Notes: generated by a model from the letters alone, not told the origin. DNA of 64,000 nt from an uncultured Chloroflexia bacterium (GCA_963808895.1 CAWEHL010000004.1:392277-456276), one strand, 5' to 3'; shown: positions 1,685-26,401, counted from the stretch's first letter. A program made the numbers and translations.

Positions 1685-1951
1685 GTGGCATGTCGCACGT
1701 CTCGTGCCAAACGCGATCTGCGACGTATCGTCCGCACCCCGGCGGGCGAGGTCGTGTTCGACCCGACGGGACGCGTCGCCGGGCGAGGCGCCTACGTCTG
1801 TCATGACACCGACTGTCTATCCATCGCCATCACCAAGGGCGCCCTGAGCCGGGCGCTCGAGACCCAGCTCCCAGCGGCATTCCTCGCGGAGGCCGGTGTC
1901 GGAGCCATCCCCACGAATACCGCCCAAGGAGGAGCCCGTGGCAAGGAGTAG
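1685..1951 (+). CDS. ylxR: YlxR/RnpM family RNA-binding protein (DUF448)
   Basis: [39 protein letters not shown] matches the YlxR signature and the nusA-infB position. The conserved R-T-C-V-A-C motif begins at 1676, upstream of the first ATG/GTG/TTG (1685), so the true start may be non-canonical (CTG 1652). Confidence 0.85.
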
Positions 1952-3848
1952 GAGCGGCACCCGCGGCCGGCGCGGGCCCCGCAAGCCACCGCGTCGACCC
2001 GACCAGAATGCGTCGTCGGTCCAGACGATCGATCCGCGCGAGCGCGGCGCGATCGAGCTGCCCGGCACGATCACCGTCAAGGAGCTCGCCGAACTGCTAT
2101 CGGTCAACGTCGCGGATGTCATCCGCGAGCTGATCAAGAGCGGCATCTTCGCGACGATCAACCAGCTGATCGACCGCGACACCGCGTCGCTGGTCGCCTC
2201 GGAGCTCGGCTACGAGGTCGCCGAGGCGGTCGCCGCGTCGACGAACGGGACCGGACCCGAGGTGGAGGGTGACGGCGCGGCCCCGGAGGCGACCAAGGAA
2301 GTCCTGTTCGAGGAGGACGATCCCAAGAAGCTGGTGCCGCGCGCCCCGATCGTCACGGTCATGGGCCACGTCGACCACGGCAAGACCAGCCTGCTCGACG
2401 CCTTGCGCTCGACCGAGGTCGCCGCCGGAGAGCGAGGTGGCATCACCCAGCACATCGGCGCGTCGGAGATCGACCACGATGGCAAGCGGGTCGTCTTCCT
2501 CGACACGCCGGGCCACGAGGCCTTCACGGCGATGCGCGCGCGGGGGGCCCGCGTCACGGATATCGCGATCATCGTCGTCGCGGCGGATGACGGCGTGATG
2601 CCGCAGACGCTCGAGGCGATCAGCCATGCGAAGGCGGCCAAGGTGCCGCTGATCATCGCGCTCAACAAGATCGACAAGGCGGACGCGGACCCCACGCGGG
2701 TCAAGACCGAGCTCACCGAAGCGGGCGTCGTCATCGAGGAGTACGGCGGCGACGTCCCCCTCGTCGCGGTGTCGGCCAAGAGCGGCCAGGGCCTTGACGA
2801 GCTCATCGAGATGGTGCTGCTCGTCGCCGATCTCCAGGAGCTCAAGGCGAATCCCGATCGTCCGGCGATCGGCACGATCGTCGAGGCGCAGCTCGACAAG
2901 GCCCGCGGGGCGGTCGCGACGGCACTCATCCAGACGGGCACGCTCAACGTCGGCGACATCATCGTGGTGGGCGAGACCTTCGGTCGCGTCCGGGCGATGG
3001 AGAACGACCGCGGCAAGCGTGTGAAGCAGGCAGGACCCGCGAGCGCGGTGGTCGTCCTCGGTCTCTCGGAAGTGCCAGAGGCCGGTGACATCCTGCGCGT
3101 CGTCGCCGATGACAAGGCGGCCCGCACGGCCGTCGAGCAGCGCAAGGCCCAGGTCGCCGCGAAGGGCGGCGACGGCAGCGGTCGTGCGACGCTCGAGGAC
3201 CTGTACCGCCAGATCCAGGCGGGCCAGGCCAAGGAGCTGCGGATCATCCTCAAGGCCGACGTCTCGGGGTCGCTGGGTGCCATCACCCACGCGCTCGAGC
3301 AGCTCGACCAGGACGAGGTACGCATCAACGTGCTGCTCGAGGCAGCCGGCGACATCACCGACAACGACATCATGCTCGCGACGGCGTCGGATGCGATCGT
3401 GGTGGGCTTCAACACGTCGATCACCGAGACTGCCCGGCGAGCTGCCGAGGACGAGGGCGTCGACGTCCGCCTCTACGACATCATCTACAAGCTCACCGAC
3501 GACATCGACGCGGCCCTCAAGGGTCTGCTCGAGCCGGAGGAAGTGGAGGTCGTCGAGGGCCGGGCGGAGGTGCGCCAGGTCATCCGCGTCGGCAAGAACA
3601 CGGTCATCGCGGGCTCGTACGTCACCGACGGCCGGATCATCCGTGCGAACGCACGGATCTGGCGCGGTGGCCGCGTGATCGCGACCGACCGGATCGAGTC
3701 GTTGCGGCGCTTCCGTGATGACGTGCGCGAGGTCCAGACGAACTACGAATGCGGTATCGGTCTGGCCTCGTTCCACGACATCGAGGAAGGCGACGTCATC
3801 GAGTGCTACTCGACGCAGACCGTCAGCCGGGCCCCCGCGACGGCCTAG
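1938..3848 (+). CDS. infB: Translation initiation factor IF-2
   Basis: ORF track 1896..3848. GTPase motifs [21 protein letters not shown] and NKID, followed by the IF-2 C-terminal domains. GTG 1938 follows AAGGAGGA (1926-1933); GTG 1896 is the alternative start. Confidence 0.95.
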
Positions 3849-3865
3849 GCGGGCGCAGTTCATCG

Positions 3866-4387
3866 GTGACGCAACGGACTGACCGTATCGACGAGCTGCT
3901 CCGGCAGGAGATCGGCTCGATCGTGACTCGTGAGGTGGCCGACCCGCGCGTCGGGTTCGCCACGATCACGAAGGTGGAGACGACCCCGGACCTGCGCCAT
4001 GCCAAGGTCTGGGTGAGCGTCATCGGGCAGCCGAAAGAGCGTTCGGCGACGATCGCGGCGCTTAGCCGCGCGATGCCGTTCGTCCGCCGTGAGCTCGGCA
4101 AGACCCTCCGGCTTAAGCGCATCCCGGACCTCCATGTCGAGCTCGACGACACGGCCGAGCGGGGAACGCGCGTCCTCCATCTGCTCGACGAGCTCGAGTC
4201 GGGCACGGCGGAGCCGAGCATCGAGCTGCCCGCGGGTGAGACGCTGCCGACGCCCATCGCACGTGTCGGCCACGAGGGCGACGCGACCGAAGAACCGCCG
4301 TCCGCTGTGATCCCGCCGAAACCGCGGCGTCGCCGCGGTCGTGAGCGGTCGAAGGGCAACACCGGGGCACGGCGCTCGTCGCGATGA
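3866..4387 (+). CDS. rbfA: Ribosome-binding factor A
   Basis: RTDRIDELLRQEIGSIVTREVADPRVGFATITKVETTPDLRHAKVWVSV is typical RbfA. GTG 3866 is the first start after the infB stop. The ORF-track start 3749 overlaps infB. Confidence 0.9.
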   Translation: MTQRTDRIDELLRQEIGSIVTREVADPRVGFATITKVETTPDLRHAKVWVSVIGQPKERSATIAALSRAMPFVRRELGKTLRLKRIPDLHVELDDTAERGTRVLHLLDELESGTAEPSIELPAGETLPTPIARVGHEGDATEEPPSAVIPPKPRRRRGRERSKGNTGARRSSR

Positions 4388-5400
4388 CCGTCGATCTGTC
4401 GCCGTACCTGGACGCCGTGCCGGACGTCGTGGTCGAACGGCTCCGCGGGGCGCGCCGCGTGCTGGCGGTCTCGCACGAGAACCCCGATGCCGACACGCTC
4501 GGGGCCACGCTCGGCGTCGTTCGTCTCGTCGAGCGGCTCGGGGGCAGGGCGGATCCCGTCTGCACGGACCCGGTGCCGCCGCTGTATGCCTTCCTCGACG
4601 GCGTCGAGCGGTTCCGGACCGACCCGGACCCAGACGCCGCATATGACCTGCTCGTGCTGTCCGACTGCGCGACGCCCGATCGGGTCGGCGAGGTCGGGGT
4701 GCGGCACCGCGCGTTGTTCGATCGGCTACCACGAGTCGTCATCGACCATCACGCCTCGAACGCGCCGGTGGCGGACGCCGATTGGATCGAACCGCACGCC
4801 GCTGCGACGTGCGAGATGGTGACCTTGCTCGCGGTCTGCCTCGGCGTCCCATTGGCGTCGGATCCGTCGCTGGCCGCGGCGCTGATGGCGGGGATCGTCA
4901 TGGATACCGCCACGTTCGCCCATCCGAACGCGACGCCGCGCACGCTCGCCGTCTCCGCAGCTCTCGTCGAAGCGGGCGCGCCGCTGTCCGATATCTCGCG
5001 GCGGCTGTACCGCTCGAAACCCGCCGAGCAGCTCCGGCTGTTCGGACGGGTCCTCGACCGGCTCGAGTCCTACGACGAGGGACGCGTGGTGGCGTCGACG
5101 CTGCTCGACGCCGACCTCGCGGCGACCGGGACCCAGCCGCCGCAGAGCGAGGGCATCATCGACCTGCTGGCACAGGCCGAGGTCGCGGAGGTGGCCATCC
5201 TGTTCAAGGAGGCCGGCGACACGACCCGGATCAGCGTCCGGACCAAGCCCGGCGGCGTCGACGCGACCGTCCTCACGGGGCTGTTCGGCGGGGGAGGGCA
5301 CGCCCGGGCCGCGGGCGCGACCGTGCCGCTGCCCATCGATCAGGCACGAGACGCGGTGCTCGCCGAGGCGCGCAAGGCCGCGGCCGCCGTCACGCGCTGA
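4384..5400 (+). CDS. nrnA: DHH/DHHA1 phosphoesterase, NrnA-type oligoribonuclease / pAp phosphatase
   Basis: SHENPDADTLG, VIDHHASN (DHH motif) and GGGGHARAAG (DHHA1 motif). ATGA overlap with the rbfA stop. Confidence 0.85.
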   Translation: MTVDLSPYLDAVPDVVVERLRGARRVLAVSHENPDADTLGATLGVVRLVERLGGRADPVCTDPVPPLYAFLDGVERFRTDPDPDAAYDLLVLSDCATPDRVGEVGVRHRALFDRLPRVVIDHHASNAPVADADWIEPHAAATCEMVTLLAVCLGVPLASDPSLAAALMAGIVMDTATFAHPNATPRTLAVSAALVEAGAPLSDISRRLYRSKPAEQLRLFGRVLDRLESYDEGRVVASTLLDADLAATGTQPPQSEGIIDLLAQAEVAEVAILFKEAGDTTRISVRTKPGGVDATVLTGLFGGGGHARAAGATVPLPIDQARDAVLAEARKAAAAVTR

Positions 5401-5401
5401 C

Positions 5402-6361
5402 GTGGCACGTTCATCGCTCGGGCCGGGCCTCGACGGCATCCTCATCGTCGACAAGCCGATCGGTCCCACCTCGCATGACATCGTCGGGCTTGTCCGCCGA
5501 CTGGCCGCAACGAAGCGGGTCGGACACGGTGGGACGCTCGATCCGTTCGCATCCGGGGTGCTGCCCGTCTTCCTGGGTCGGGCGACCCGCGTGGTCGAGT
5601 TCCACCTTGCCGATCGGAAGGCATATCGGGCCACGATCTGTTTCGGCGCGTCGTCGGCGACGGATGATCTCGAGGGCGAACTCACGCCCTTGGAGGGACC
5701 GGCCCCTACCCGCCCCGCAGTCGAGGACGCGCTCGTCGGATTCCTCGGGCCGATCCGACAGCGTCCGCCGGCGTACTCGGCGATCAAGGTCGGTGGACGC
5801 CGCGCGTACGCCATGGCGCGCGCCGGCGAGACGGTCGAGCTCAAGGAGCGCGACGTGACGATCGACTCGCTGTCGCTTGCGTCGTGGGACGCCACCGAAC
5901 CGGATCGGCCGATCGCGGTGGTCGACGTGACGTGCTCCGCCGGGACGTACGTGCGCGCCCTCGCCCGCGATCTCGGCACCGCCGTCTCGAACGCCGCCTA
6001 CCTCGGGGCACTGCGGCGGACAGCGGCCGGACCCTTCTCGGTCGCCGATGCAGTGTCGCTGGACACCGTCCGGTCGGCGACTGCCGAGGGCCCGGATGGC
6101 CTCGTCCCGCTCCTTCGACCGGTCGATGCCGGGTTGGAGCGGTTCGCCCGGATCGCACTGGAGGAGCGCGAGGTCGATGCGGTCGCCCAGGGGCAGTACA
6201 TCCGGCCCGCGGCGGGGATACCGGCGGGCGGTGATCACTATCGCCTGGTCGACCCGGCCGGGCGGCTCGTCGCGATCGCCGTCCCGGCGGGCGCTGGTCG
6301 CCTCGCCCCGGACAAGGTCCTGGTCGGCGCCGGCGAACGACCCGCGTCGGTCGGCGCGTGA
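5402..6361 (+). CDS. truB: tRNA pseudouridine(55) synthase TruB
   Basis: GILIVDKPIGPTSHDIVGLVRRL...GHGGTLDPFASGVLPVFLGRATR is the TruB catalytic signature. Confidence 0.93.
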   Translation: MARSSLGPGLDGILIVDKPIGPTSHDIVGLVRRLAATKRVGHGGTLDPFASGVLPVFLGRATRVVEFHLADRKAYRATICFGASSATDDLEGELTPLEGPAPTRPAVEDALVGFLGPIRQRPPAYSAIKVGGRRAYAMARAGETVELKERDVTIDSLSLASWDATEPDRPIAVVDVTCSAGTYVRALARDLGTAVSNAAYLGALRRTAAGPFSVADAVSLDTVRSATAEGPDGLVPLLRPVDAGLERFARIALEEREVDAVAQGQYIRPAAGIPAGGDHYRLVDPAGRLVAIAVPAGAGRLAPDKVLVGAGERPASVGA

Positions 6362-7101
6362 TGGACGTCGTGCCGGGCGTCGACCGGCTGCGCCCCGAGC
6401 ACGGCCCGGTCTTCGCGGTCATCGGCGTCTTCGACGGCTTGCACCAGGGGCACATCTACCTGTTGGACCACCTCGTCCGCGAGGCCCTTAAGCGGGAGGC
6501 GCACGCGTGCGTCATCACGTTCGACCACCATCCCGACGAGGTCCTGACCGGCTCGGCGCCACCGCTGCTGCTCCATCCCGATGAGCGGGTGGCACGGTTG
6601 GCCGACGCCGGCGTCGATGTGACCGTCGTCCAGCACTTCGATGACGCGGTGCGACACACGACCTACGACGCCTTCCTCGCCACCATCCGCGACCGAGCCG
6701 ACCTCGCCGGGCTGCTCATGACGCCCGATGCCGCGTTCGGCTACGAGCGCGGTGGCACGCCTGACTCGGTGCGCGAGCTCGGTGAGCGGGAGGGCTTCGA
6801 TCTCGTGGTCGTCGAACCGCTCGCGATCGACGGCGCCGCCGTTCGGAGCAGCGACATCCGCGCGGCGATCGCCAGCGGCGACCTGGCCGGCGCGGAACGA
6901 CTCCTGGGGCGTCCGGTCGCGCTCCAGGGTGAGGCTCGCGGCGGTCGTCTGACGTTCGAGTGGCCGATGGCCATGCCGCCGGACGGCGACTATCCGGTGC
7001 GCATCGACGGGCGACCAGGCATCGCGACCATCGACGGCGCGAGCGTCACGCTCCCGGAAGGCTCGGCGGACGGCGTCGTGCGCTTGGAGTTCATCTCGTG
7101 A
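6358..7101 (+). CDS. ribF: FAD synthetase (FMN adenylyltransferase) of the RibF family with a short, degenerate C-terminal region in place of the riboflavin kinase domain
   Basis: VIGVFDGLHQGHIYLL and FDHHPDEVL are RibF N-terminal motifs. The protein is only 247 aa. After LLGRPVALQGE only about 60 aa remain and no PTAN-type kinase motif is present in any frame. Confidence 0.8.
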   Translation: MMDVVPGVDRLRPEHGPVFAVIGVFDGLHQGHIYLLDHLVREALKREAHACVITFDHHPDEVLTGSAPPLLLHPDERVARLADAGVDVTVVQHFDDAVRHTTYDAFLATIRDRADLAGLLMTPDAAFGYERGGTPDSVRELGEREGFDLVVVEPLAIDGAAVRSSDIRAAIASGDLAGAERLLGRPVALQGEARGGRLTFEWPMAMPPDGDYPVRIDGRPGIATIDGASVTLPEGSADGVVRLEFIS

Positions 7102-7613
7102 CCGAGCAAACGTGGCACCTGGCCCAGCTGAACGTCGGACGCACCCTGGCACCTGTCGAGTCGCCCGCGATCGAGGGCTTTCGAGCGCAGCTCGCTCCGA
7201 TCAATGCGCTCGCCGACGCCGATCCGGGGCTCGTGTGGCGGCTCCAGACCGAGGCCGGGAACGCGACGGACATCCGGCCCACGGAGGACGACCTGTTCCT
7301 GATCAACCTGAGCGTCTGGCGCTCGATCGAGGCGTTACGAGCGTTCACCTACACGAGTGCGCACGTCCAGGTCCTTCGGCAGCGTCGTTCCTGGTTCGAG
7401 CAGCTGGCCGAGGCGCATCTCGTGCTGTGGTGGGTGCCGGCCGGTCACATCCCATCGGTCGAGGAGGCCCTGGAGCGGCTCGACCGGTTGCGCCGCGACG
7501 GGCCGACGCCCGCAGCCTTCACGTTCCGCGCGCCGTTCGCGCCGGAGGCGGACCATCCGGGTGACGCGCTCGTCGACGCCGAGTTCTGCTGGCCGGAGCT
7601 CGCCGCGTCCTGA
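7098..7613 (+). CDS. DUF3291 domain protein
   Basis: WHLAQLNVGR...PAIEGFRAQLAPINALADADPGLVWRLQ...FLINLSVWRSIEALRAFTY is the DUF3291 pattern. GTG 7098 overlaps the ribF stop (GTGA). The ORF-track start 6960 lies inside ribF. Confidence 0.75.
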   Translation: MTEQTWHLAQLNVGRTLAPVESPAIEGFRAQLAPINALADADPGLVWRLQTEAGNATDIRPTEDDLFLINLSVWRSIEALRAFTYTSAHVQVLRQRRSWFEQLAEAHLVLWWVPAGHIPSVEEALERLDRLRRDGPTPAAFTFRAPFAPEADHPGDALVDAEFCWPELAAS

Positions 7614-8186: not shown

Positions 8187-8297
8187 GCCGAGGAGCATAC
8201 CGGCCAGCCGCCCCACGATGGCGCGATAGGGGCCGCTCTGCTACCATCCGCCGGTCATACAGGTAGGAATAGGACAAAGTTCGTGTCGGAGGACCGA

Positions 8298-8567
8298 GTG
8301 CCGCTCGCGCGGGAACAGAAGCAGGAGATCATCACCGGGTACGCCACCAAGGAAGGCGATACCGGTTCGCCGGAGGTCCAGGTCGCGCTCCTGACGGAGC
8401 GGATCACGGACCTGACGGAGCATCTCCGCCGCTTCCCCAAGGACAACCATTCGCGCCGCGGCCTCCTCAAGCTCGTCGGCCAGCGCCGCCGCCTTCTCGC
8501 GTATCTGATGAAGAAGGACAGCGCGCGCTACCGGACCGTCATCGGACGGCTCGGACTCCGCCGCTAG
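8298..8567 (+). CDS. rpsO: 30S ribosomal protein S15
   Basis: [69 protein letters not shown] is S15. GTG 8298 follows GGAGGA (8288-8293) and gives 89 aa. In-frame GTG 8283 is an alternative. Confidence 0.92.
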
Positions 8568-8655
8568 CGCCGCGTCACGTCGCGGGCTCCGCCCCGACGT
8601 CCCTGGGCTCCCGTAGGGCGCCCTCGCACACCCGGCACCAGCAGCGCAGCAGGCT

Positions 8656-8671
8656 GACCCGCCCGCGGGTC
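8656..8671 (+). terminator. GC-rich hairpin downstream of rpsO (possible rpsO terminator or processing site)
   Basis: GACCCGC (8656-8662) and GCGGGTC (8665-8671) are inverted repeats. No T-tract follows. Confidence 0.3.
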
Positions 8672-8675
8672 GTCG

Positions 8676-8695
8676 CCTCCTCCACGGCAAGGAGG
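8676..8695 (+). promoter_or_regulatory. Hairpin in the pnp leader that sequesters the Shine-Dalgarno sequence
   Basis: CCTCCT (8676-8681) pairs with AGGAGG (8690-8695), which is the pnp SD, with an 8-nt loop. The TTG start is at 8706. Confidence 0.45.
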
Positions 8696-8705
8696 AAGGT
8701 CTCTC

Positions 8706-11303
8706 TTGTCTCAGATCTTCGAGACGCAATTCGGTGGTCGCACGCTGACCATCGAGACCGGCAAGCTCGCCCGACTCGCGGGCGGGTCCGTCACCGTCCG
8801 CTTCGGTGACACCATGGTGCTCGGCACCGCGAACCGGTCGGAACCCCGTCCCGGGCTCGATTTCTTCCCGCTCACGGTCGACTTCGAGGAGCGGATGTAC
8901 GCCGCGGGCAAGATCCCGGGCGGCTTCATCAAGCGCGAGGCGCGGCCGTCGGAAGCGGCCATCCTGGCGGCGCGTCTGACCGACCGCCCGATCCGCCCGC
9001 TCTTCCCCGATGGCTACAAGGACGACGTCCAGCTCGTCATCACGGTCCTCTCGACCGACCAGGAGAACGACCCCGACGTGCTCGGCACGGTCGCGGCGTC
9101 GGCGGCGCTGACGATCAGCGAGATCCCGTTCCTCGGCCCGATCGGCGCGGTGCGCGTGGGTCGGATCGACGGCGAGTTCGTCATCAACCCGACCTACAGC
9201 GACCTCGAGCGGTCGGAGCTCGACCTCGTCGTCTCCGGCACCCGCGACGCGATCATGATGGTCGAGGCGGGGGCCAAGCTCCTGCCCGAGGACATCATGG
9301 CCGAGGCGATCCTGTTCGGCCATCGCGCGATCCAGCCGCTGATCGACCTGCAGGAGGAGCTCCAGAAGGCGGTCGGCAAGACGAAGCGCATCCCGTACAT
9401 CGAGCCGTCGGCCGAGTCGGTGCTGGACTTCGTCGCTGCGGCCAAGGATGGTCGCGAGTTCGCGGTCATCGATGTCGAGACGACCGGCACCGACGCGGCC
9501 CTCGGCGACCTTCTCGAGGTCGCCGTCGTCAAGGTCACGCGACGGGGCGATCGGCGACCGCTGGTCGACGCTCGTGAACCCGGGCCGCCCGATCGTCGGG
9601 AATCAGCTCCACGGCCTGACCGACGCGGACGTCGCCGGTGCGCCGTCGCCGGCCGAAGCCGTCCAGCAGGCGCTCGACCATATCGGCGACGCGATCGTCG
9701 TCGGGCACAACGTCGGGTTCGATCTCGGCTTCCTCGAGGCCGCGTTGTCATCCGCCAAGCTCGAGCCCGGCCGCTACATCGATACGCTGGTCCTCGCCCG
9801 CGAGGGCTACCCCGAGATCGGGCAGTACAAGCTCGAGGGCCTGTCGTCGTTCTTCGGGATCGATCTCAGCCAGAACCATCGGGCGCTGCCCGATGCCGAA
9901 GCGACCGCTGCATTGCTGCTGTGGTTCGCCAACGACCTGCCCAGTCGCATCGAGACCCTGAAGGCGCAGATCGGCGACTCGATCCGGGCGCAACCGCTCG
10001 GGTGGTGACGCCAAGGGCCTGCTCGAGACGGCGCGCCGCAACGCCCGTGTCAGCAAGAGCCTGTTCGGGCTGATCCACAAGAAGACCGTCCGCAAGCTCG
10101 TTCTCGACGAGGGGATCCGGATGGACGGCCGCGGCGTCACGGATATCCGGCCCATCTCGGTCGACGTCGGGCTGGTCCCGCGGGCCCATGGCTCGGGGCT
10201 GTTCACGCGTGGTGACACGCAGGCGTTGACGATCGCGACGCTCGGCTCGTCCTCGGACGTCCAGCGGATCGACACGATCAGCCCGATCACCGAGAAGCGC
10301 TATCTCCACCACTACAACATGCCGCCGTACAGCACCGGCGAGAACAAGCCGATGCGTGGGCCCGGCCGGCGCGAGATCGGCCACGGCAACCTGGCCGAGC
10401 GGGCGCTGGTGCCCGTGCTTCCCGACCACGATGAGTTCCCGTACGTCATCCGCCTCGTCAGCGAGTGCGTGACGTCGAACGGGTCGACCTCGATGGCCTC
10501 GACCTGCGGCTCGACGCTCGCGCTGATGGATGCCGGTGTGCCGATCAAGGCCCCGGTCGCCGGCGCGGCGATGGGCCTGATGTCGGAGCCCGACGGCCGG
10601 TTCGCGGTCCTGACCGACATCCTCGGCAAGGAGGATGCCTTCGGTGACATGGACTTCAAGGTCACCGGCACGCGGAACGGCATCACCGCCCTGCAGATGG
10701 ACATCAAGGTCCAGGGCATCAACGAGGCGATCATCCGCGACGGGCTGAAGCAGGCCCTCGACTGCGCGGCTGTTCATCTTCGACAAGATGACCGAGGTGC
10801 TGCCCGAGGCGCGCGGCGAGATGAGCGACTTCGCTCCGCGCATCATCACGATCAAGATCAACCCCGAGAAGATCCGCGAGATCATCGGCAAGGGCGGATC
10901 GATGATCCGCAAGATCCAGGAAGAGACCCAGACCGAGATCAACGTCGAGGACGACGGGACCGTGGAGATCGCGGCCGTGTCCGGCGAGAACTCGCGCAAG
11001 GCGATCCAGTGGATCGAGTCACTGACCCGCGAGGTCGAGATCGGGGCGCTCTATCTCGGCAAGGTCACCCGGATCATGGGCTTCGGCGCCTTCGTCGAGA
11101 TCCTGCCGGGCAAGGAGGGTCTGGTCCGCATCGGCGAGCTCGCCGACTACCACGTGCCCACCGTCGAGGACGTCGTGTCCGTCGGCGATGAGGTGATGGT
11201 CGTCGTGACCGAGATCGACCGCCAGGGCCGGGTCAATCTCTCGCGCAAGGCGGCGATGCAGCGGCATCTCGCCAAGGAGACCGTCGGCAGCGGCACGGAA
11301 TAG
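8706..11303 (+). CDS. pnp: Polyribonucleotide nucleotidyltransferase (PNPase) with an inserted DEDDh exonuclease domain; reading frame broken three times (+1 each) in this assembly
   Basis: Four collinear pieces. 8706-~9537, frame 0: RNase PH-1 ([29 protein letters not shown]...). ~9538-~10002, frame 1: exonuclease insert. ~10003-~10760, frame 2: [37 protein letters not shown], RNase PH-2. ~10762-11303, frame 0: KH ([11 protein letters not shown]) and S1 ([15 protein letters not shown]). Length 2598 = 865 codons + 3 extra bases. Confidence 0.9.
9453..10003 (+). other. DEDDh (DnaQ/RNase T/Orn-like) 3'-5' exonuclease domain embedded in pnp
   Basis: Exo I: [10 protein letters not shown]. Exo II: [13 protein letters not shown]. 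Exo III: [14 protein letters not shown]. PNPase linker sequence flanks it on both sides, with no start or stop signal of its own. Confidence 0.8.
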
Positions 11304-11353
11304 GCTCGCCGGGGCCGGCCTCGCGGCCGGCTCGAACACCAACGTTCGCTCAC

Positions 11354-11379
11354 GAGACCCGGCTCAGCTGCCGGGTCTC
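11354..11379 (+). terminator. Hairpin terminator downstream of pnp
   Basis: GAGACCCGGC (11354-11363), loop TCAGCT, GCCGGGTCTC (11370-11379). The 10-bp perfect stem lies 50 nt after the pnp stop. No T-tract, which is common in GC-rich genomes. Confidence 0.55.
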
Positions 11380-11520
11380 GGTCTGTCCAGCCTGCCTCGC
11401 CCGAGCCCGCCCCTCATCTGGCTGATTCACATCGTGATCACACCCCAGCGAACGGGGTCGCGAGGAGGCCCACTGCTATACTCCCGCCGTGCCCGACCTG
11501 ATCAAGACCACAGCGGAGCC

Positions 11521-12594
11521 ATGCCCAACGTGATCGCCAAGCCCCTCACCGTCGCGGTCGTCGGCGCTACCGGCCTGGTCGGCAGGACGATGACGCGCCT
11601 GCTCGTCGAGCGGGCCTTCCCGTTCACCGAGCTGCGGCTGCTCGCGAGCGAGCGCAGCGCCGGCACCGAGGTCGATGTCGCGGGCACCGTCCACACGGTT
11701 CGCCAGGCCACGCCCGATGCGTTCGACGGGGTCGACATCGCGCTGTTCAGCGCCGGGGGAGATACCTCCACGGCACTCGCCCCGGCAGCCGCGAAGCGCG
11801 GCGCCACAGTGATCGACAACTCGAGCGCCTGGCGGATGGATCCATCCGTCCCGCTCGTGGTGAGCCAGGTCAATCCAGACGACCTGGTGCGGCACGAGGG
11901 CATCATCGCGAACCCGAACTGCTCGACGATGCAGCTCGTCCCCGTGCTCATGGCCCTGCGCGATAGCGTCGGTCTCGAGCGTGTCGTGGTCGACACGTAC
12001 CAGGCGGTGTCGGGCACCGGCGGCAAGGCGACGCGCGAGCTTCAGGACCAGGTCGAGGCATACGTCGAGCAGCGTCCGCTGACCACGAACGTCTACCCGC
12101 ACCAGGTCGCCTTCAACGCCCTACCGCAGGTCGATGTCTTCCTCGACAACGGGTACACGAAGGAGGAGTGGAAGCTCGTCACGGAAAGCCGGAAGATCCT
12201 CCACCTGCCGGACCTGCGCATCTCGAGCACAGCCGTACGCATCCCGGTCTTCGTGGCGCACTCGGAGGCCGTCCACGTGGAGACGACCGATCCGATCACA
12301 CCCGATCGGGCTCGTACGCTGTTCGCCGCGGTCCCCGGGGTCGTCGTCCAGGACGATCCGTCGACATCGACCTATCCGCTCGCGACGACGGCGGCCGGCA
12401 GCGATGAGGTGTTCGTCGGGCGCATCCGGCAGGATCCGTCGATCGCGGGCGGTCGCGGCCTGGCGTTCTGGGTCGTGAGCGACAACCTGCGCAAGGGCGC
12501 CGCGACCAACGCTGTCGAGCTCGCGGAGATCCTCGTCGAGCGGGGCTGGGTCAGGGCCGCCGCGACACGGGACGCGGCCGGATCCCCCGCGTGA
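11521..12594 (+). CDS. asd: Aspartate-semialdehyde dehydrogenase
   Basis: VAVVGATGLVGRTM, FSAGGDTS, NSSAWRMDPSVPLVVSQVNP and ANPNCSTMQL (active-site Cys). ATG 11521 is preferred over the ORF-track start 11434. Confidence 0.92.
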   Translation: MPNVIAKPLTVAVVGATGLVGRTMTRLLVERAFPFTELRLLASERSAGTEVDVAGTVHTVRQATPDAFDGVDIALFSAGGDTSTALAPAAAKRGATVIDNSSAWRMDPSVPLVVSQVNPDDLVRHEGIIANPNCSTMQLVPVLMALRDSVGLERVVVDTYQAVSGTGGKATRELQDQVEAYVEQRPLTTNVYPHQVAFNALPQVDVFLDNGYTKEEWKLVTESRKILHLPDLRISSTAVRIPVFVAHSEAVHVETTDPITPDRARTLFAAVPGVVVQDDPSTSTYPLATTAAGSDEVFVGRIRQDPSIAGGRGLAFWVVSDNLRKGAATNAVELAEILVERGWVRAAATRDAAGSPA

Positions 12595-13333: not shown

Positions 13334-15004
13334 ATGATCAACAGCCCGGACACGCCGCTCCGCATCATCCCGCTCGGCGGGGTGGGGGAGATCGGCAAGA
13401 ACATGTACGTCTTCGAATACGGCGATGACATCGTCGTCATCGACTGCGGATTGATGTTCCCCGACGAGGAGATGTTCGGCATCGACCTCGTCATCCCCGA
13501 CGTCTCCTATCTCAAGGAACGGCGCGACAAGGTGCGCGCGTTCCTCATCACCCACGCACACGAGGACCACGTCGGCGCGCTGCCGTACGTCCTGCCCGAG
13601 TTCCCGGGCGTGCCGATCTACGCGAGCACGCTCGCGCGCGGCCTCCTCAGCGTGAAGGTCAAGGAGCACAAGCTCCACGACAACCCGATGCACGCGCTCG
13701 ACCCAGGCGACGAGCTCGACATCGGCCCGTTCCACGTCATCCCGTTCCGCGTCGGGCACTCGATCCCCGACGCGATGGGGATCGCGCTCAAGACCCCCGC
13801 CGGGACGGTCGTCCACACGGGCGATTTCAAGTTCGACCACACACCGGTCGACGGCAAGCTCTCGGACTTCGCGATCCTCGCCAGGCTCGGTGCGGAAGGG
13901 GTCGCGTGCCTCCTGTCCGACTCGACCCGGGCCGAGAACCCCGGATACACCCCTTCGGAGCGGACCGTCGGCGAGGCCTTCCGCGAGATCATGGAGCCGC
14001 TCGAGGGCCGCGTGATCGTCGCGACGTTCGCCAGCAACATCGCGCGCATCCAGCAAGTGCTCGATGCCGCCGCTGATATGAGCCGAGACGTCTCGGTCAT
14101 CGGTCGGTCGATGGAGCAGAACTTCCGCATCGCGACCGAGCTCGGCTATCTCACCTACGAGCCGTCGCGGATCATCTCGAAGGACCGCATCAAGGACTAC
14201 GAGGACGGCAAGCTCGTCATCGCCACGACCGGGGCCCAGGGCGAGCCGATGGCAGGCCTCGCCCGGATGGCCAACCGCGACCATCGATTCGTCGAGATCC
14301 AGCCCGGCGACACGGTCATCGTCAGCGCCAGCCCGATCCCAGGCAACGAGGAATACGTCTCGCGGACGATCGACAACCTGTTCAAGGCCGGCGCGAACGT
14401 CTACTACCACACGATCAAGCGCGCGCATGTCTCGGGCCACGCGAGCCAGGAAGAGCTCAAGCTCATGCTCGGCCTCACCAAGCCGAAGCATTTCATCCCG
14501 ATCCATGGCGAATTCCGGATGCAGGTCCAACACGGTCGTCTCGCGATCGAGACCGGCGTCGATCCGGCCAACGTGTTCATCATCGAGAACGGCACGCCGA
14601 TCGAGTTGTTCGCCGATGGATCGGCGCGGCGCGGCAGCCCGGTGACGGCGGGCTATGTGTTCGTCGACGGCCTGTCCGTCGGCGACGTCGGTGAGGTCGT
14701 GCTGCGCGACCGCCGCTCGCTCGCCAACGACGGCATCTTCATGATCGTGGTCACGGTCGACAAGCAGACCGGGTCGGTCGTCGGGCGACCCGAGATCGTG
14801 ACGCGCGGCTTCGTCCACATGAACGAGCAGGACCCGCGCATCGAGGAAGCCATCGATCGGGTGATCAGCGCCGTCGACACGCCCGGTGACCACATCAGCG
14901 AGATCGGGCTCCTGAAGAGCCAGATCAAGGACGCGGTATCGACCTTCCTGTACGAGCAGACCAAGCGGCGCCCGCTCGTGTTCCCCGTCGTGGTCGAGGT
15001 CTGA
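13334..15004 (+). CDS. rnj: Ribonuclease J
   Basis: LRIIPLGGVGEIGKNMYVFEY, ITHAHEDHVGALPY (metallo-beta-lactamase motif), plus beta-CASP and C-terminal regions; 556 aa. Confidence 0.93.
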   Translation: MINSPDTPLRIIPLGGVGEIGKNMYVFEYGDDIVVIDCGLMFPDEEMFGIDLVIPDVSYLKERRDKVRAFLITHAHEDHVGALPYVLPEFPGVPIYASTLARGLLSVKVKEHKLHDNPMHALDPGDELDIGPFHVIPFRVGHSIPDAMGIALKTPAGTVVHTGDFKFDHTPVDGKLSDFAILARLGAEGVACLLSDSTRAENPGYTPSERTVGEAFREIMEPLEGRVIVATFASNIARIQQVLDAAADMSRDVSVIGRSMEQNFRIATELGYLTYEPSRIISKDRIKDYEDGKLVIATTGAQGEPMAGLARMANRDHRFVEIQPGDTVIVSASPIPGNEEYVSRTIDNLFKAGANVYYHTIKRAHVSGHASQEELKLMLGLTKPKHFIPIHGEFRMQVQHGRLAIETGVDPANVFIIENGTPIELFADGSARRGSPVTAGYVFVDGLSVGDVGEVVLRDRRSLANDGIFMIVVTVDKQTGSVVGRPEIVTRGFVHMNEQDPRIEEAIDRVISAVDTPGDHISEIGLLKSQIKDAVSTFLYEQTKRRPLVFPVVVEV

Positions 15005-21983: not shown

Positions 21984-23950
21984 TGGTCGACGAGACGGCG
22001 GGGTCCGTGGACGACGTGATGCGCGAGGGTGTCGCCGTCAGCGGCGGCGCGCCGGCCACGGAGGGAGCGGCCGCCCCGGAGGAAGCGGCTGGCCCTGTCG
22101 GTGACGCAGTGCCCGCCGACGAGGCCGTCCCCGAGCGGGCGCCAGAGGTCACCCACGAGGCCGCGATCGACGGAGATGCCGACGAACTCGCGTCCGACGC
22201 CGCCGCGGCGGAGGCCGACGGGTCGATCGACGAGGACGGATCCGCCGGCACGAACGAAGACCCGACGACCGCGTCAGAGGCGACCGGGCCACGGACGGTG
22301 GGTCGGCTCGTCGCGGATGCACTCCGCACCGCAGGCGTGCGCTACGCGTTCACGGTGCCCGGCGAATCGTTCCTGGGCCTGCTCGACGGTCTCCGCGAGG
22401 CCGGCATCCGCATCGTCGCGACCCGCCACGAGGGTGGTGCCGCCTTCATGGCCGAAGCCCACGGCAACCTGACCGGGCGACCCGCGGCCTGCCTCGGGAC
22501 GCGTGCCGTCGGCGCAGCGAATCTCGCCATCGGCATCCACACCGCGCGCCAGGACTCATCGCCGATGTTCGCGCTCGTCGGTCAGGTCGAGCGTCCGCAT
22601 CGCGGTCACGAGGCGTTCCAGGAGATCGATCAGGTCGCGACGATCGGCGGGCTCGCCAAGTGGGCGGCCGAACCGACCCAACCGGGCGACGTCGCCGGCA
22701 TCATGGACGAGGCCGTCCGACAAGCCACGACCGGACGGCCGGGTCCCGTCGTGCTGTCGTTCCCGGAGGACCTGCTCGACGAGATCGTCCCGGATGACGC
22801 TCCCGTCGCGGCGGAACGCTCGCCATCGGGGCGACCCTCTGACGCCGACATCCGCACGGTGATCGAGCTGCTTGCATCGGCCGACCGGCCGGTCATCGTC
22901 GCCGGCGGCGGCGTCCTTCGGGCGCGAACATCGACCGACCTGTTGCGCTTCGCGGAGCTGCTCCAGGTCCCGGTCGTGGCGGGCTGGCGCCGGGCGGACG
23001 TCATCTCGAACGACCACCCGCTGTACCTCGGTATGGCCGGGCTTGGGGCAGCGCCGTCCGTCCGCGACCGGCTGCTCGCTGCAGACGCCATGCTGGTCAT
23101 CGGATGCCGGCTCAACGAGCCCACCTCCTGGGAGGACACGATCCCCGGCGCCTCGACGGCATGGGCGTGGGTCGACATCGATCCGCATCGCCCGTTCGGC
23201 CCTCGTCCTCCGGATCTGACGGTCACCGCCGACGCGCGCACGTTCCTGCGTGCCGCGAATGAACGCCTCGTCGGCCGGGCTGTCCTCGATGCCGAGAAGG
23301 TTCGGAAGCGGCAGGAGAACAACGAGACCGACCGGGCCGCATGGGAGACCGCCTCGATCGTCGATGCCGACGCCGACTCGTGGACGGGTCCGGGCGTCCA
23401 TCCCGGCCGGGTCATCACGACGCTGCGGGCCGTGCTCCCCGACGACGCCATCCTCACGACCGACGCCGGCAACTTCGCCGGCTGGGCCGGCCGTGGCTTC
23501 CGGTTCCGCCGACCCGGTACGTTCATCGGTCCCACCTCCGGCGCGATGGGTTACGCCGTCCCCGCGGCGATCGCCGCGGCCCTCGTGCATCGCGACCGAC
23601 CAGTCGTCGCTCTCGCCGGCGACGGCGGGATGGCGATGACGATGGCGGAGCTCGAGACCGCGAACCGGGAGGGCGCCAGGATCATCGTCCTCGTCTTCGA
23701 CAATGAGCGGTACGGGACCATCCGGATGTGGCAGGACCGGCGCGGGAGCGGTGAGGGCGTCGGGACGGAGCTCGGTCCCATCGATTTCGCCGCCGTCGCC
23801 CGTGGCCTTGGCGCGCGTGGCGTTCGGGTGGAGCATGATGCCGACCTCGAGCCCGCCCTTCGACAGGCGCTTGCCGAGGACCGTTCGACGGTGATCCACC
23901 TCGCGCTCGATCGCGCGTGGGTCTCGGTGGACCGACCGGCGACGGCCTGA
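21983..23950 (+). CDS. Thiamine pyrophosphate-dependent enzyme (acetolactate synthase large-subunit-like) with an acidic ~100-aa N-terminal extension
   Basis: VGRLVADALRTAGVRYAFTVPGESFLGLLD..ATRHEGGAAFMAEAH (N-terminal TPP domain) and GDGGMAMTMAELETA (TPP-binding motif). The first ~100 aa are Ala/Glu/Asp-rich low complexity. Confidence 0.85.
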   Translation: MVDETAGSVDDVMREGVAVSGGAPATEGAAAPEEAAGPVGDAVPADEAVPERAPEVTHEAAIDGDADELASDAAAAEADGSIDEDGSAGTNEDPTTASEATGPRTVGRLVADALRTAGVRYAFTVPGESFLGLLDGLREAGIRIVATRHEGGAAFMAEAHGNLTGRPAACLGTRAVGAANLAIGIHTARQDSSPMFALVGQVERPHRGHEAFQEIDQVATIGGLAKWAAEPTQPGDVAGIMDEAVRQATTGRPGPVVLSFPEDLLDEIVPDDAPVAAERSPSGRPSDADIRTVIELLASADRPVIVAGGGVLRARTSTDLLRFAELLQVPVVAGWRRADVISNDHPLYLGMAGLGAAPSVRDRLLAADAMLVIGCRLNEPTSWEDTIPGASTAWAWVDIDPHRPFGPRPPDLTVTADARTFLRAANERLVGRAVLDAEKVRKRQENNETDRAAWETASIVDADADSWTGPGVHPGRVITTLRAVLPDDAILTTDAGNFAGWAGRGFRFRRPGTFIGPTSGAMGYAVPAAIAAALVHRDRPVVALAGDGGMAMTMAELETANREGARIIVLVFDNERYGTIRMWQDRRGSGEGVGTELGPIDFAAVARGLGARGVRVEHDADLEPALRQALAEDRSTVIHLALDRAWVSVDRPATA

Positions 23951-23957
23951 CCGCGTC

Positions 23958-24837
23958 TCACGGCGGCAGGGTCGGGAGCGCCGCCTCGGCGTCCCGTATC
24001 GCCGCTCCGACGCTCGCCAATCCATCGCGGTGGTGCGCCACGAAGCCCGCTTCGAACGGCGCCGCCACCTGCTCGCGAATCCTCGCGAACGCCGCCTCGC
24101 ATCCCGCGAGGATCGCTGCGACTCGCCGCTCGTCGGTCTGCAGCGCAAACAGCCCCGCCATCGACGCTGGCGTCGTTCCGAGCCCTTGGACCTGTGCGTC
24201 GAAGCGCGCGATCAGCCGTTGCGCGAACGCAGGCCGCTCCGGGACGACGCCGCCCGCGATCGATGCGACGCACGCGCGCCATGCGTCGAGGGCGTGGACC
24301 GCGCCGGGATCCGCGGCGATCCGGGCATCGAGATCGGCGAGCGCGGGTCGCAGCCGTGACAGCAGACGGTCGCGCAGGCCGAAGACGGCGTCGTTCGCTG
24401 AAGGCAGACACCCTGGATCGACTCGCGCCCGTCCCGTACAGGGTGTTGCGAAATCGCTTTTGGTCGGCAAGCGGCAGGCTCGCAAGGCCGATGCGGTTCG
24501 GGTCCCGCGCTTGAGCCTCCGGGAGCCGTCCCACGAAGGTCGACACTCCGAATCCCCAGCGCTCCGCCCACTCGATCGGCTCGAGATCGGCGTCGGGGAC
24601 TGTCGGCGGTGGCTCGACCCACGGTTCCCACGCGAACCCGTGCGCCTGCATGCATCGCGCCACGAGCACCGCGACGGCCTCGGAACGGCGCGCATCGATG
24701 TCGCGTCCATCGTCGCCCACGGCGAGTGCGGCAGTGACGGTCATCGGCGCCGGAGTCGATCCGGTGGGGAGCGCGCTGCTCGCGAGCCACAGACCGCCGA
24801 TGATGCCGAGGATCAGGGCAGCGTAGGCCGCCCTCAC
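23958..24837 (-). CDS. Hypothetical exported protein; one +1 frame break near 24430
   Basis: GTG 24837 overlaps the upstream stop (GTGA). The N-terminal signal/anchor is VRAAYAALILGIIGGLWLASSALP. The first part sits in the frame of ORF 23551..25251 and the rest in ORF 23958..24710. 880 nt = 293 codons + 1. Confidence 0.5.
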
Positions 24838-25436
24838 GGCAGCCAGGCGACCGGCGTCGTGTAGGTACCGCCCCGCCAACCGCCGCCCTGGTAGACCGAT
24901 CCGTACCCGAGGGCGCGATACGACCCGCTGCCGCAGTCCGCGGCGGTCCCCATGTCGACGCCGGCGACCCAGCCGAAGGCCACGCTCGTGTTGTAGACAT
25001 AGCCGGTATCGCGGCAGGTGGTCCAGCCGCTTGCGCCATATCGCTGCAGGATCACTCGGCTTCGTAGCTCGCCGATCGGCTGGGCGACGCGGTATCCGCT
25101 CGTGCACGGCCAGCGATACGAGCGGACGACGGCATCGGCGCCGCCGCCCGACAGCGCGCTCAGGCCGACCGCCAGATGCAGACACCCGTCGACCGTCGAG
25201 CGGTACGGCATGCCGGACGTCCCGCGCTGGCCGTCCGACAACAGCACCCATCGCGGCCCGCCGAACACCTCGTCATAGATGCACAGGTACTTGACCCCGC
25301 TCCCAGGGTCCTCCCAGACCGTGCCCGGTACGCACGCCTCGCTCGGTACCGGTCCAGCGGCGGCCACGACCGCCGTAGGCGCACCCAGGAGGGCGAGGGC
25401 AACGGCGCCCACCAGGAGCACGCGCACACTGATCAT
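24834..25436 (-). CDS. Secreted Cys-containing hypothetical protein
   Basis: Signal peptide MISVRVLLVGAVALALLGAPTAVVAAAG, 200 aa, six Cys, Gly/Tyr/Trp-rich C-terminus. I recognised no family. Confidence 0.55.
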   Translation of the reverse strand: MISVRVLLVGAVALALLGAPTAVVAAAGPVPSEACVPGTVWEDPGSGVKYLCIYDEVFGGPRWVLLSDGQRGTSGMPYRSTVDGCLHLAVGLSALSGGGADAVVRSYRWPCTSGYRVAQPIGELRSRVILQRYGASGWTTCRDTGYVYNTSVAFGWVAGVDMGTAADCGSGSYRALGYGSVYQGGGWRGGTYTTPVAWLP

Positions 25437-25540
25437 CGACGATCCTCCGTCTCCCGGCGCGCGAGGCGGGATCGCCGTCGGAGGGGGAGGAGACTAGGTG
25501 TCGACCCTTAGCGCGGGCTCACCTTCCGATGCACGGCGAC

Positions 25541-26401
25541 TCAGCGGCCGCGTGCGGCGACGATCGAGAACGACAACGGGATACGTCCCCGCTCCTCTGG
25601 TCGCACGTCGCGGTGGCCTCCCCACCAGTCGACCGGGTGCTCGGTGACCTCCTGGACGGCCAGGCCGGCTCGAAGCAGCGCCGTCACGACCTCACCGAGC
25701 GTCCAGGCTCGAGCGAACTTCCAGTGCTGGTCCTGATCGGGGATCGATAGGCGGTCGATGTACTCGGGCGCCCAGCCCTTCGATGCCTCCGGTCCGGCGA
25801 AGTAGTCGTAATCGGTCGCGATCCACCGACCGTCCCGGTCGACATCGAACAGCCACTCAGCCGGGTGCCCGTCGAACAGGACGAGGCGCCCGTCGGCGGA
25901 CAGCAACCGCCGGATGACGCGCGCCCACGCGTCGAGGTCCTGGAGCCAGATCAGCGCGCCACGCCCGGTGTACACGAGGTCGCCCGTCCCATCGAGCTCG
26001 GCCGGGGCGTCGAGCACGTCCGCTTCGATCCACCGAGCACGGGCGCCGACGGCCTCGGACAACCGCCGAGCGAGCTCGAGCATGCGCGGGCTGAAGTCGA
26101 TCCCGACGACCTCCTCGGCGCCGAGGTTCCAAAGTGAGAGCGTGTCGCGGCCCCCCGCGCACTGAAGATGGATGGCACGCCGACAGCGGCCGTGCAGGTC
26201 GCCGATCAGCGCCGCCTCGACAGGGAAGAGGTTCGAGCCACCGTCCCGGATCAGCGCTACGGCCTCGTCGAACCAGCGTTCGTATCGCTCGGCCGCCTCG
26301 TCCCACGCCGCCCGGTTCGACCGATGCATGCCACGCACGTCGGCCCGTTCGGCGGGCGTCGCTGACCGGACGTGGCCATCCGCGTCGTCATCGTGGTCCA
26401 T
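25541..26401 (-). CDS. Class I SAM-dependent methyltransferase
   Basis: AIHLQCAGGRDTLSLWNLGAEEVVGIDFSPRMLELARRL (motif I and post-I); 286 aa. Confidence 0.75.
   Translation of the reverse strand: MDHDDDADGHVRSATPAERADVRGMHRSNRAAWDEAAERYERWFDEAVALIRDGGSNLFPVEAALIGDLHGRCRRAIHLQCAGGRDTLSLWNLGAEEVVGIDFSPRMLELARRLSEAVGARARWIEADVLDAPAELDGTGDLVYTGRGALIWLQDLDAWARVIRRLLSADGRLVLFDGHPAEWLFDVDRDGRWIATDYDYFAGPEASKGWAPEYIDRLSIPDQDQHWKFARAWTLGEVVTALLRAGLAVQEVTEHPVDWWGGHRDVRPEERGRIPLSFSIVAARGR

Follow-up and report, generated by a model that had tools for sequence, protein, structure and literature searches.

PNPase with a conserved DEDDh exonuclease domain inserted into its helical domain in Limnocylindria-type Chloroflexota

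The pnp gene of an uncultured Chloroflexia bacterium appears to encode a PNPase with a complete DEDDh 3'-5' exonuclease domain built into its all-alpha (helical) domain. The gene lies on the plus strand at positions 8706-11303 of a 64,000-nucleotide stretch of DNA (GCA_963808895.1 CAWEHL010000004.1:392277-456276), which we refer to at its full length as the window, and it is interrupted there by three frame breaks. An earlier note, made from the sequence alone, had read the gene as a domain insertion in one polypeptide rather than as a nested gene or a chimera; both insertion junctions are present in about 40 genomes and the gene is a single open reading frame (ORF) in 31 of them, which bears this reading out. 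We are highly confident that this is a real, conserved, in-frame domain insertion and that the frame breaks are errors. To the explanation as a whole, which joins this conserved architecture to a role as a dual-chemistry 3'-5' exonuclease, we assign a probability of roughly 0.55; the functional part of it is what we infer.

The gene opens with a TTG start codon at 8706 and closes with a TAG stop codon at 11301-11303, downstream of rpsO at a distance of 138 nucleotides (nt). Because rpsO adjoins it, we regard this pnp as the canonical rpsO-pnp ortholog; its product is the rpsO-linked housekeeping PNPase of a Chloroflexota bacterium of Limnocylindria type. The features of the locus are as follows, with residues numbered on the merged protein.

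8298-8567, plus strand: rpsO, ribosomal protein S15 (89 amino acids by ORF translation); S15 holds the same position in the relatives L002, L003 and L085
8690-8695, plus strand: ribosome-binding site AGGAGG, 10 nt 5' of the TTG (direct reading)
8706-11303, plus strand: pnp with the inserted exonuclease, 864 amino acids after deletion of the three extra bases
8706-9350, plus strand: RNase PH-1 core and RNase_PH_C subdomain, residues 1-215 (Pfam; aligns to residues ~18-250 of solved PNPases)
9351-9452, plus strand: all-alpha domain, N-terminal part, residues 216-249 (PNPase alignment and models; predicted helix 237-247)
9453-9930, plus strand: core of the DEDDh (DnaQ/PolC-type) 3'-5' exonuclease, residues ~250-408 (Pfam PF00929, PDB profile, AlphaFold/Foldseek)
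9471-9479, plus strand: Exo I, D256-V-E258 (direct reading; invariant in 32 sequences)
9721-9723, plus strand: Exo II aspartate D339, in GHNVGFD (direct reading; invariant)
9877-9894, plus strand: Exo III, H391-RALP-D396, the DEDDh signature (direct reading; invariant)
9931-10141, plus strand: all-alpha domain, C-terminal part, residues 409-478 (in the models, helix 393-431 continued, then helices 435-446 and 450-468)
10142-10808, plus strand: RNase PH-2, the catalytic phosphorolytic domain, with RNase_PH_C, residues 479-700 (Pfam; alignment to solved PNPases)
10809-11024, plus strand: KH domain, residues ~701-772 (Pfam KH_1, E = 1.1e-10)
11025-11258, plus strand: S1 domain, residues ~773-850 (Pfam S1, E = 1.1e-17)

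The merged 864-residue protein thus runs in the order RNase PH-1, start of the all-alpha domain, DEDDh exonuclease, remainder of the all-alpha domain, RNase PH-2, KH and S1. We performed a Pfam scan on this protein and recovered RNase_PH (E = 7.9e-53, two copies), RNase_PH_C (E = 8.2e-23, two copies) and RNase_T (PF00929; E = 2.7e-24, 87 bits against a cut-off of 24), the last covering residues 254-404 and model positions 2-164 of 164. All of the families expected in the earlier note (RNase_PH, RNase_PH_C, PNPase, RNase_T, KH_1 and S1) were found, though the PNPase helical-domain model was matched in its tail only, at positions 50-80 of 81 and below the gathering score (E = 3e-4). This match falls on residues 445-475 of the C-terminal all-alpha part, where PDB PNPases align from ~442-456. 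About 70 residues that do not belong to the exonuclease are left in the all-alpha linker and are predicted to be helical, and the all-alpha domain has probably been retained, though diverged and split.

The PNPase identity of the remainder was supported by family models, motifs and alignments. The NCBIfam equivalog TIGR03591 scored 949 bits (cut-off 525) and NF008805 scored 944 bits (cut-off 471), and in both cases the insert divides the match into two stretches. The active-site motifs of PH-2 are present, including the phosphate-binding S/T-rich loop, the metal-binding GDMDFK and RREIGHG, and the stretches holding them (19 and 10 residues) are identical or near-identical to solved PNPases in the alignment. 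Residues 3-237 of the query aligned to ~18-250 of the solved PNPases and residues 442/456-850 to ~307/316-709, leaving ~70 residues between the two aligned blocks in canonical PNPases against ~228 here, a net gain of ~155 amino acids that equals the size of a DnaQ core. By this alignment and the structural models the foreign part comprises ~155-160 amino acids (residues ~250-408), fewer than the 183 claimed for it earlier; in the models, the ~25 residues past Exo III carry the last exonuclease helix onward into the helical domain. At the level of sequence the protein has every attribute of a PNPase except that the helical-domain model is not recognisable in its N-terminal part and that, in the window only, the frame is not intact, and the insert has the motifs, the profile matches and the fold of a DEDDh exonuclease.

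We then asked which type of exonuclease the insert represents. Its top NCBIfam matches were exclusively of PolC, DinG, DnaQ or Cho-like "DEDD exonuclease domain-containing" types. When a profile of the insert was searched against PDB sequences, the best matches were the PolC exonuclease domain 2p1j (3e-35), PolC 9qpc (3e-34) and Staphylococcus aureus DinG 8zef (8e-29), followed by weaker matches to Cas2-DEDDh, DnaQ, epsilon and ExoX; RNase T was matched over its C-terminal third only (~80 residues, about 1e-9), and Orn and REXO2 were not among the matches of this search. An AlphaFold model of residues 236-443 (predicted local distance difference test, pLDDT, 89; predicted template-modelling score, pTM, 0.85) has an RNase H-like alpha/beta fold. 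Its best Foldseek match was again PolC 9qpc, with a root-mean-square deviation (rmsd) of 1.9 A over 166 columns and 36% identity, followed by DinG 8zef at 2.0 A, and the Foldseek probability was 1.0 to PolC, DinG, DnaQ, epsilon, ExoX and RNase T. The DnaQ/RNase T fold proposed for the insert was thus upheld by profile (2p1j) and by structure (9qpc) alike, and within it the insert falls among the proofreading exonucleases of PolC, DinG and DnaQ type rather than with Orn or RNase T.

The models also describe how the exonuclease is attached. In both the model of residues 236-443 and that of the full-length protein, a helix at 237-247 is followed by four residues and then by the first beta strand (252-259), and on the other side the Exo III helix runs unbroken for 39 residues (393-431) before helices 435-446 and 450-468 join PH-2. 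Because both models show the same helix-strand connections, we place the insertion after the first all-alpha helix. As modelled, the exonuclease appears to be rigidly mounted on the helical domain, not tethered to it.

To determine how widely this architecture is spread, we scanned one genome per GTDB species with an alignment of the insert. This returned ~40 loci (L005-L043 and L050), with 44-95% identity over the insert and both junctions, so that related genomes among the GTDB species representatives do carry the same insertion. The genomes were labelled Chloroflexota, Candidatus Limnocylindrales or Chloroflexia, apart from a few contigs that are evidently mis-binned. The 31 complete genes are single ORFs of ~860 codons ending in ...AAMQRHLAK, and MEGAHIT and SPAdes short-read assemblies are among them. 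A 26-member protein cluster with both junctions further draws its entries from NCBI, JGI, ENA and Logan. We considered whether the junctions at 9450-10010 could be a misassembly that fused pnp to an unrelated DnaQ-like gene, for which only the general noisiness of the contig speaks. Since both junctions recur in ~40 independent assemblies made with different assemblers from different samples, and in the 26-member cluster as well, we rejected this explanation and consider the chance of it negligible.

A protein search with the linker, insert and linker together yielded 667 relatives, many of which had RNase_PH, RNase_T and RNase_PH in one ORF at 100% query cover, and none of which was longer than 541 amino acids, even on megabase contigs. 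Conserved frame breaks, programmed frameshifting or an assembly-breaking repeat as the cause of this were rejected on the strength of the 31 intact ORFs and of an 864-residue cluster in a library of representative proteins. The lack of full-length matches came from how that search selected its candidates, and the short relatives have other explanations: the L002 contig ends inside the gene, and L001 and L003 are indel-ridden long-read contigs. Many metagenome contigs with the N-terminal part of the gene (proteins P0001, P0004-P0006, P0015, P0016 and P0056) stop in the same stretch of ~30 codons, which is the start of PH-2 (ATLG...RYLHHYN) and is where the contig end of L002 lies. This shared stop probably reflects breakage of the assembly graph at a segment conserved among co-occurring strains. 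As contigs stop in this common PH-2 stretch, the word-indexed protein search returned only fragments although 864-residue proteins exist in the collection.

We next performed an exhaustive search of a library of 1.84 billion representative proteins and considered the best 150 matches. Among these, only one 50%-identity cluster was matched at full length in a single stretch (P0121, 864 amino acids, residues 6-855), and of the nine top matches that we scanned with Pfam, only P0121 contained the insert. The next full-length matches were canonical PNPases aligned in two or more stretches, the best being P0125 (741 amino acids, 61% identity). P0125 is the nearest insert-free PNPase and sits in a similar locus, rpsO-pnp-...-UDG (uracil-DNA glycosylase family) followed by a gene of 560 amino acids; because it occupies such a locus without the insert, the insertion is later than the split from the P0125 lineage. 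In a neighbour-joining tree of exonuclease domains the inserts formed one clade and thus go back to one insertion event. This tree does not tell a PolC-, DinG- or Cho-like donor apart, the inserts being 35-41% identical to all three.

No exonuclease was found in the longer library PNPases that we scanned; they were lengthened by additional S1 or KH repeats, by C-terminal tails or by linker segments without an assignment. In P0147 (899 amino acids), RNase_PH_C and the helical domain are separated by ~125 residues without an assignment, and KH is matched twice; P0191 (944 amino acids) has ~55 extra residues ahead of PH-2 and three KH matches. P0132 (914 amino acids) and P0136 (983 amino acids) have three S1 domains each, and P0128 (1219 amino acids) has a C-terminal extension of ~500 amino acids. 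The region linking PH-1 and PH-2 may be a recurrent insertion site.

The frame breaks were examined base by base. In six-frame translation, the PNPase reading moves from frame 0 to 1 to 2 and back to 0, each change being +1. Frames were called with a 7-state hidden Markov model on codon-position GC, combined with stop-codon bookkeeping, and the model put the switches at about 9539, 10006 and 10765. The closest intact relative, L005 (DATNFQ010000235.1), with its pnp ORF at 1748-4342, shares 89.5% nucleotide identity with the window over 4.4 kb; alignment to it revealed exactly three uncompensated indels in pnp, each of them one extra base in the window.

9537, plus strand: first frame break, extra A (GTC-A-CGC in the window, GTC CGC in L005, GTA CGC in L003)
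9991, plus strand: second frame break, extra C (not in L003, L004 or L005)
10763, plus strand: third frame break, extra T (not in L003 or L005)

The breaks had been placed earlier at about 9537, 10002 and 10761. The first of these was exact, the second extra base lies 11 nt upstream of its assigned place, and the L005 alignment puts the third at 10763; since the second extra base is 9991, the junction read there as AQPLG followed by GDAKG was wrong. L003 (JGI 3300044699 Ga0418691_29437), which is 97.9% identical across pnp, has none of the three extra bases, and L004, which spans only 9574-10497, is missing the extra C at 9991. With these bases absent from three close relatives, the caveat that breaks lie inside the insert and at its 3' edge is settled. 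All three insertions are 0-5 nt from sites that are polymorphic among relatives, a pattern that consensus errors typically produce; the window reads "CA" at 9536/9537, a place that is C in one relative and A in the other. After correction, pnp measures 2595 nt, the same length as in L005, with no internal stop and 96.9% protein identity to L005.

Four other genes of the window together contain at least nine further frame breaks, of which seven read as +1.

~45355-46578, plus strand: proline-iminopeptidase-like (pip-like) hydrolase, three +1 breaks near 45940, 46012 and 46215
~60276-62354, plus strand: CpaF/TadA-type ATPase, three +1 breaks near 60835, 60941 and 61343
50745-52462, minus strand: dynamin-like GTPase, at least two breaks near 51328 and 51410
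52529-53455, minus strand: S-adenosylmethionine (SAM) methyltransferase, one +1 break near 52782

Because the extra bases in pnp are missing from three close relatives and similar one-base insertions occur in these other genes, we attribute the breaks to assembly; the errors cluster, as nusA, infB, truB, rnj and ftsK are all intact. Judged from these sequence comparisons, the three +1 breaks are almost certainly errors, single bases inserted in a noisy metagenome assembly that was probably built from long reads. A signature of three +1 breaks per gene, as in pnp and the pip-like and cpaF-like genes, fails, since the methyltransferase has one and the GTPase at least two.

Two other accounts of the breaks were weighed. 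In the first, pnp in this organism would be a genuine, freshly inactivated pseudogene and the three insertions would be real. The gene as assembled does have three frame breaks while several of its large neighbours are intact, as listed above, but the corrected gene shows no stop or other lesion, has the length of L005 and a ratio of nonsynonymous to synonymous substitution rates (dN/dS) of 0.047, and L003 does not share the extra bases. At least four unrelated genes of the window are also broken, the seven breaks read in detail being +1, and the proximity of the pnp insertions to polymorphic sites is that of consensus errors; we consider inactivation very unlikely. In the second account, the breaks would be programmed +1 ribosomal frameshift sites, or the insert a removable mobile element (an intein or intron-encoded ORF). 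At first glance it does seem more than chance that the three shifts all go one way and jointly bring back the original frame, and the first protein search gave only fragments of the relatives. The breaks are not conserved, however, as the 31 relatives are single-frame and the closest relatives are without the extra bases, and the fragmentary matches are explained by contig ends and noisy long-read contigs. Neither Pfam nor NCBIfam gave a Hint or homing-endonuclease match, RNase_T being the only match in the insert, and the Rfam scan shows no intron. As far as sequence comparison reaches we rejected this second account, to which we attach next to no probability.

Other assemblies of this group contain indels of their own. 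L003, which comes from nearly the same organism, aligns to the window at 92% identity, and the 18.5 kb of alignment contain 179 gap openings; indels break up most of its genes, and the frame breaks in its pnp differ from those of the window. In L042 (CAVZTA010000016.1; P0051), a Nanopore-style metagenome-assembled genome, the pnp-exonuclease gene is broken 5' of Exo II, away from the break positions of the window, and this is a separate, non-conserved indel.

Having established the insertion, we examined whether it is maintained by selection. The earlier note had the catalytic residues of the insert as complete, and this was correct: D256-x-E258, D339 and H391-x4-D396 were read directly and are invariant across 32 sequences, down to 45% identity in the insert. 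Over these 32 sequences, mean identity to the window was 63% in the insert, 56-69% in the flanking helical segments and 88-94% in PH-1, PH-2, KH and S1 (PH-2 88%). By the Nei-Gojobori method, dN/dS in the closest species pairs was ~0.25 for the insert and ~0.12 for the core, and between the window and L005 it was 0.046 for the insert and 0.047 for the rest of the gene. Absolute dN/dS values across species pairs are inflated because a GC content of ~91% at third codon positions (GC3) depresses dS; only the contrast between insert and core domains and the values for the closest pair were relied on here. By these measures, the insert is under purifying selection and looks catalytically competent. 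The DEDDh domain could instead be kept mainly as a structural, regulatory or binding module with little catalysis, for example one that senses 3' ends or nucleotides and gates the side pore. It does evolve faster than the PNPase catalytic domains (63% against 88% for PH-2), and its host domain is thought to govern the access of nucleoside diphosphates (NDPs) and phosphate to the active site (PMC2723993). The invariance of all five metal-binding and general-base residues in 32 species is the usual mark of retained catalysis, however, and dN/dS is well under 1, and we find a non-catalytic module improbable.

What, then, might a catalytically active exonuclease do at this position? In Escherichia coli PNPase, the helical domain occupies the ring face opposite S1/KH, where it forms part of a pore that leads to the active site besides the central channel and is believed to control the passage of NDPs and phosphate (PMC2723993). 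If this protein forms a trimer like other PNPases, it would hold three phosphorolytic sites within the ring and three Mg2+-dependent hydrolytic DEDDh sites. By homology, the DEDDh domains would be on the ring face opposite the KH/S1 RNA entry portal and beside the side pore of the helical domain, and they would be rigidly held by the four-residue linker on one side and the continuous 39-residue helix on the other. The likeliest role would be hydrolysis of nucleic-acid 3' ends that phosphorolysis handles poorly, with RNA as the more likely substrate because the host enzyme is a PNPase. Candidate substrates may include short end-product oligoribonucleotides, 3' ends at low phosphate or high NDPs, and tails from the reverse reaction of PNPase. 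Such an enzyme would be a single-polypeptide counterpart of a PH ring with a hydrolytic nuclease. Tentatively, we propose that the Limnocylindria PNPase could be a dual-chemistry homotrimer with three active DEDDh sites at the opposite, "exit" face, in which RNA 3' ends or leftover oligonucleotides are passed between the two chemistries within one particle; this specific picture is possible, and we hold it with less assurance than the explanation as a whole.

Several observations weigh against this reading of a dual-chemistry RNA exonuclease. The closest characterised relatives of the insert, PolC proofreading domains and DinG, are DNA-directed, and the Bacillus subtilis DinG exonuclease prefers single-stranded DNA, degrades RNA in RNA-DNA hybrids and cuts single-stranded RNA only with Mn2+ (PMC12525004). 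A DHH/DHHA1 gene of NrnA type lies close by, and its product may already take care of nanoRNA clearance. The full-length AlphaFold model (28-row alignment) is poor, with a mean pLDDT of 54 and a pTM of 0.45, and is usable only over ~240-470; where the exonuclease sits with respect to the ring is drawn from homology to solved PNPases, not from a model of this protein. Finally, pnp as assembled in the window cannot be translated into one protein. The idea of a "built-in Orn", in particular, appears weakened, both because the insert falls outside the Orn/RNase T subgroup and because of the NrnA-type candidate at 4384-5400.

With the same architecture, the exonuclease may act on DNA or RNA-DNA hybrids, for example in 3' end resection, R-loop removal or repair, with PNPase serving as a scaffold or contributing through its reported DNA-end activities. 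The nearest relatives by sequence and fold (PolC proofreading domains, the DinG N-terminal exonuclease, Cho-like DnaQ-GIY-YIG proteins, epsilon and ExoX) point this way, as does the activity of B. subtilis DinG exonuclease on single-stranded DNA and on the RNA strand of hybrids (PMC12525004); a gene of the uracil-DNA glycosylase family two genes downstream is a weak hint in the same direction. On the other side, the host is a canonical RNA-decay PNPase with intact KH and S1 RNA-binding domains in a cluster of translation and RNA-processing genes, and the substrate preference of a DEDDh domain is not readable from its sequence, as RNase T and DinG exonuclease take both DNA and RNA. We judge a role on DNA or hybrids, which is the main rival reading, rather unlikely, though considerably less so than a non-catalytic module, and we favour the dual-chemistry exonuclease acting on RNA.

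The genomic neighborhood of pnp is that of a translation and RNA-processing locus. Upstream, the gene order is nusA-infB-rbfA-DHH/DHHA1 gene-truB-...-rpsO-pnp, and downstream it is pnp-asd-UDG-rnj-ftsK, in which UDG denotes the uracil-DNA glycosylase-family gene two genes 3' of pnp. An intact RNase J (556 amino acids) is encoded three genes 3' of pnp at 13334-15004 (plus strand). The order from pnp to ftsK is shared by the relatives L001 and L003 and, in part, by L085, and because the pnp-rnj order recurs in this way, two major RNA-decay enzymes, PNPase and RNase J, stay near each other. The DHH/DHHA1 protein at 4384-5400 (plus strand), between rbfA and truB and 3 kb 5' of pnp, is an NrnA-type candidate nanoRNase or 3'-phosphoadenosine 5'-phosphate (pAp) phosphatase. 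At 6358-7613 (plus strand), a flavin adenine dinucleotide (FAD) synthetase domain (6358-7101) and DUF3291 (6960-7613) lie in different overlapping frames; they form a single 354-amino-acid product in L003 and may be a fused gene broken in one assembly, or two neighbours. Three regions, 23883-25602, 39083-39799 and 43025-43687, had no clear codon-position GC periodicity on either strand by the hidden Markov model. A scan of the whole window at Rfam gathering thresholds gave no match, and a promoter and terminator scan of 8200-11600 found nothing relevant within pnp.

PNPase is among the most conserved and best-studied enzymes of RNA decay, and to our knowledge all solved PNPase structures follow one five-domain plan. 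In the open full-text literature we found no description of a PNPase with a DEDDh exonuclease, though non-open papers or automated domain-architecture tables may hold one. The novelty suspected in the earlier note thus holds for the literature and not for the databases, where full-length copies are named plainly "polyribonucleotide nucleotidyltransferase" (e.g., MFM2104451.1 and MFZ9702886.1 from Candidatus Limnocylindrus sp.) and fragmentary copies "exonuclease domain-containing protein". These names hide the built-in exonuclease and amount to an annotation blind spot. The helical domain, the least-understood domain of PNPase, would thereby be able to accommodate a large graft with a function of its own, and it may be a place where new functions arise. 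The fusion also offers a natural system in which to study cooperation between phosphorolysis and hydrolysis, including end-product clearance, phosphate and NDP dependence, tail removal and R-loop removal, where elsewhere this cooperation takes separate proteins (Orn/REXO2, RNase D, Rrp44/Rrp6). If the proposed function is true, a class of abundant soil and freshwater bacteria, the Limnocylindria, has made its essential PNPase a dual-chemistry nuclease, providing a bacterial single-gene counterpart of the exosome PH ring with its hydrolytic nuclease and a natural experiment on the need of PNPase for a nanoRNase partner. Specialists would find the architecture surprising, and it makes for a directly testable system.

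Compared with known systems, the protein is closest to canonical PNPase (TIGR03591; solved from E. coli, S. antibioticus, C. crescentus, S. aureus and others). It shares the PH-1/helical/PH-2/KH/S1 order, the PH-2 motifs and the rpsO-pnp synteny, matches all solved PNPases strongly and is ~44-61% identical outside the insert to insert-free library PNPases. Canonical enzymes have no exonuclease in the helical domain, whereas here that domain contains ~155 amino acids of DEDDh exonuclease and the N-terminal two-thirds of the Pfam helical model are unrecognisable. The phosphorolytic PNPase and hydrolases of the DEDD family also meet as separate partners in one decay pathway, as in the passages of PMC7261184, PMC6521605 and PMC4245959 that concern PNPase followed by Orn/REXO2 (in human mitochondria) and RNase D in the Caulobacter degradosome. 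Those partners are separate polypeptides, whereas here there is one; Orn and REXO2 are moreover dimeric nanoRNases of another DEDDh subgroup, and the insert has no specific similarity to Orn.

The PolC exonuclease and the DinG N-terminal exonuclease have the same Exo I, II and III motifs, gave the best sequence and structure matches, and are likewise monomeric modules fused to a larger enzyme. In PolC, the exonuclease domain is itself inserted, within the PHP domain. The host in those cases is a polymerase or a helicase, whereas here it is a phosphorolytic RNase, and the insert is only 35-41% identical to them. In the eukaryotic RNA exosome, the PH-like ring is catalytically inert and hydrolysis is left to the nucleases Rrp44 and Rrp6, the latter a DEDD enzyme. 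The two systems would share a design in which a PH-domain ring capped by S1/KH is joined with hydrolytic 3'-5' exonuclease activity, part of which is on the face opposite the cap. In the Limnocylindria PNPase, by contrast, the ring keeps its phosphorolytic sites, and the hydrolytic module is covalently inserted, is of DEDDh rather than RNB or DEDDy type, and would be present in three copies. The likeness to the exosome, as far as such a comparison goes, is one of analogy and not of homology of the fusion.

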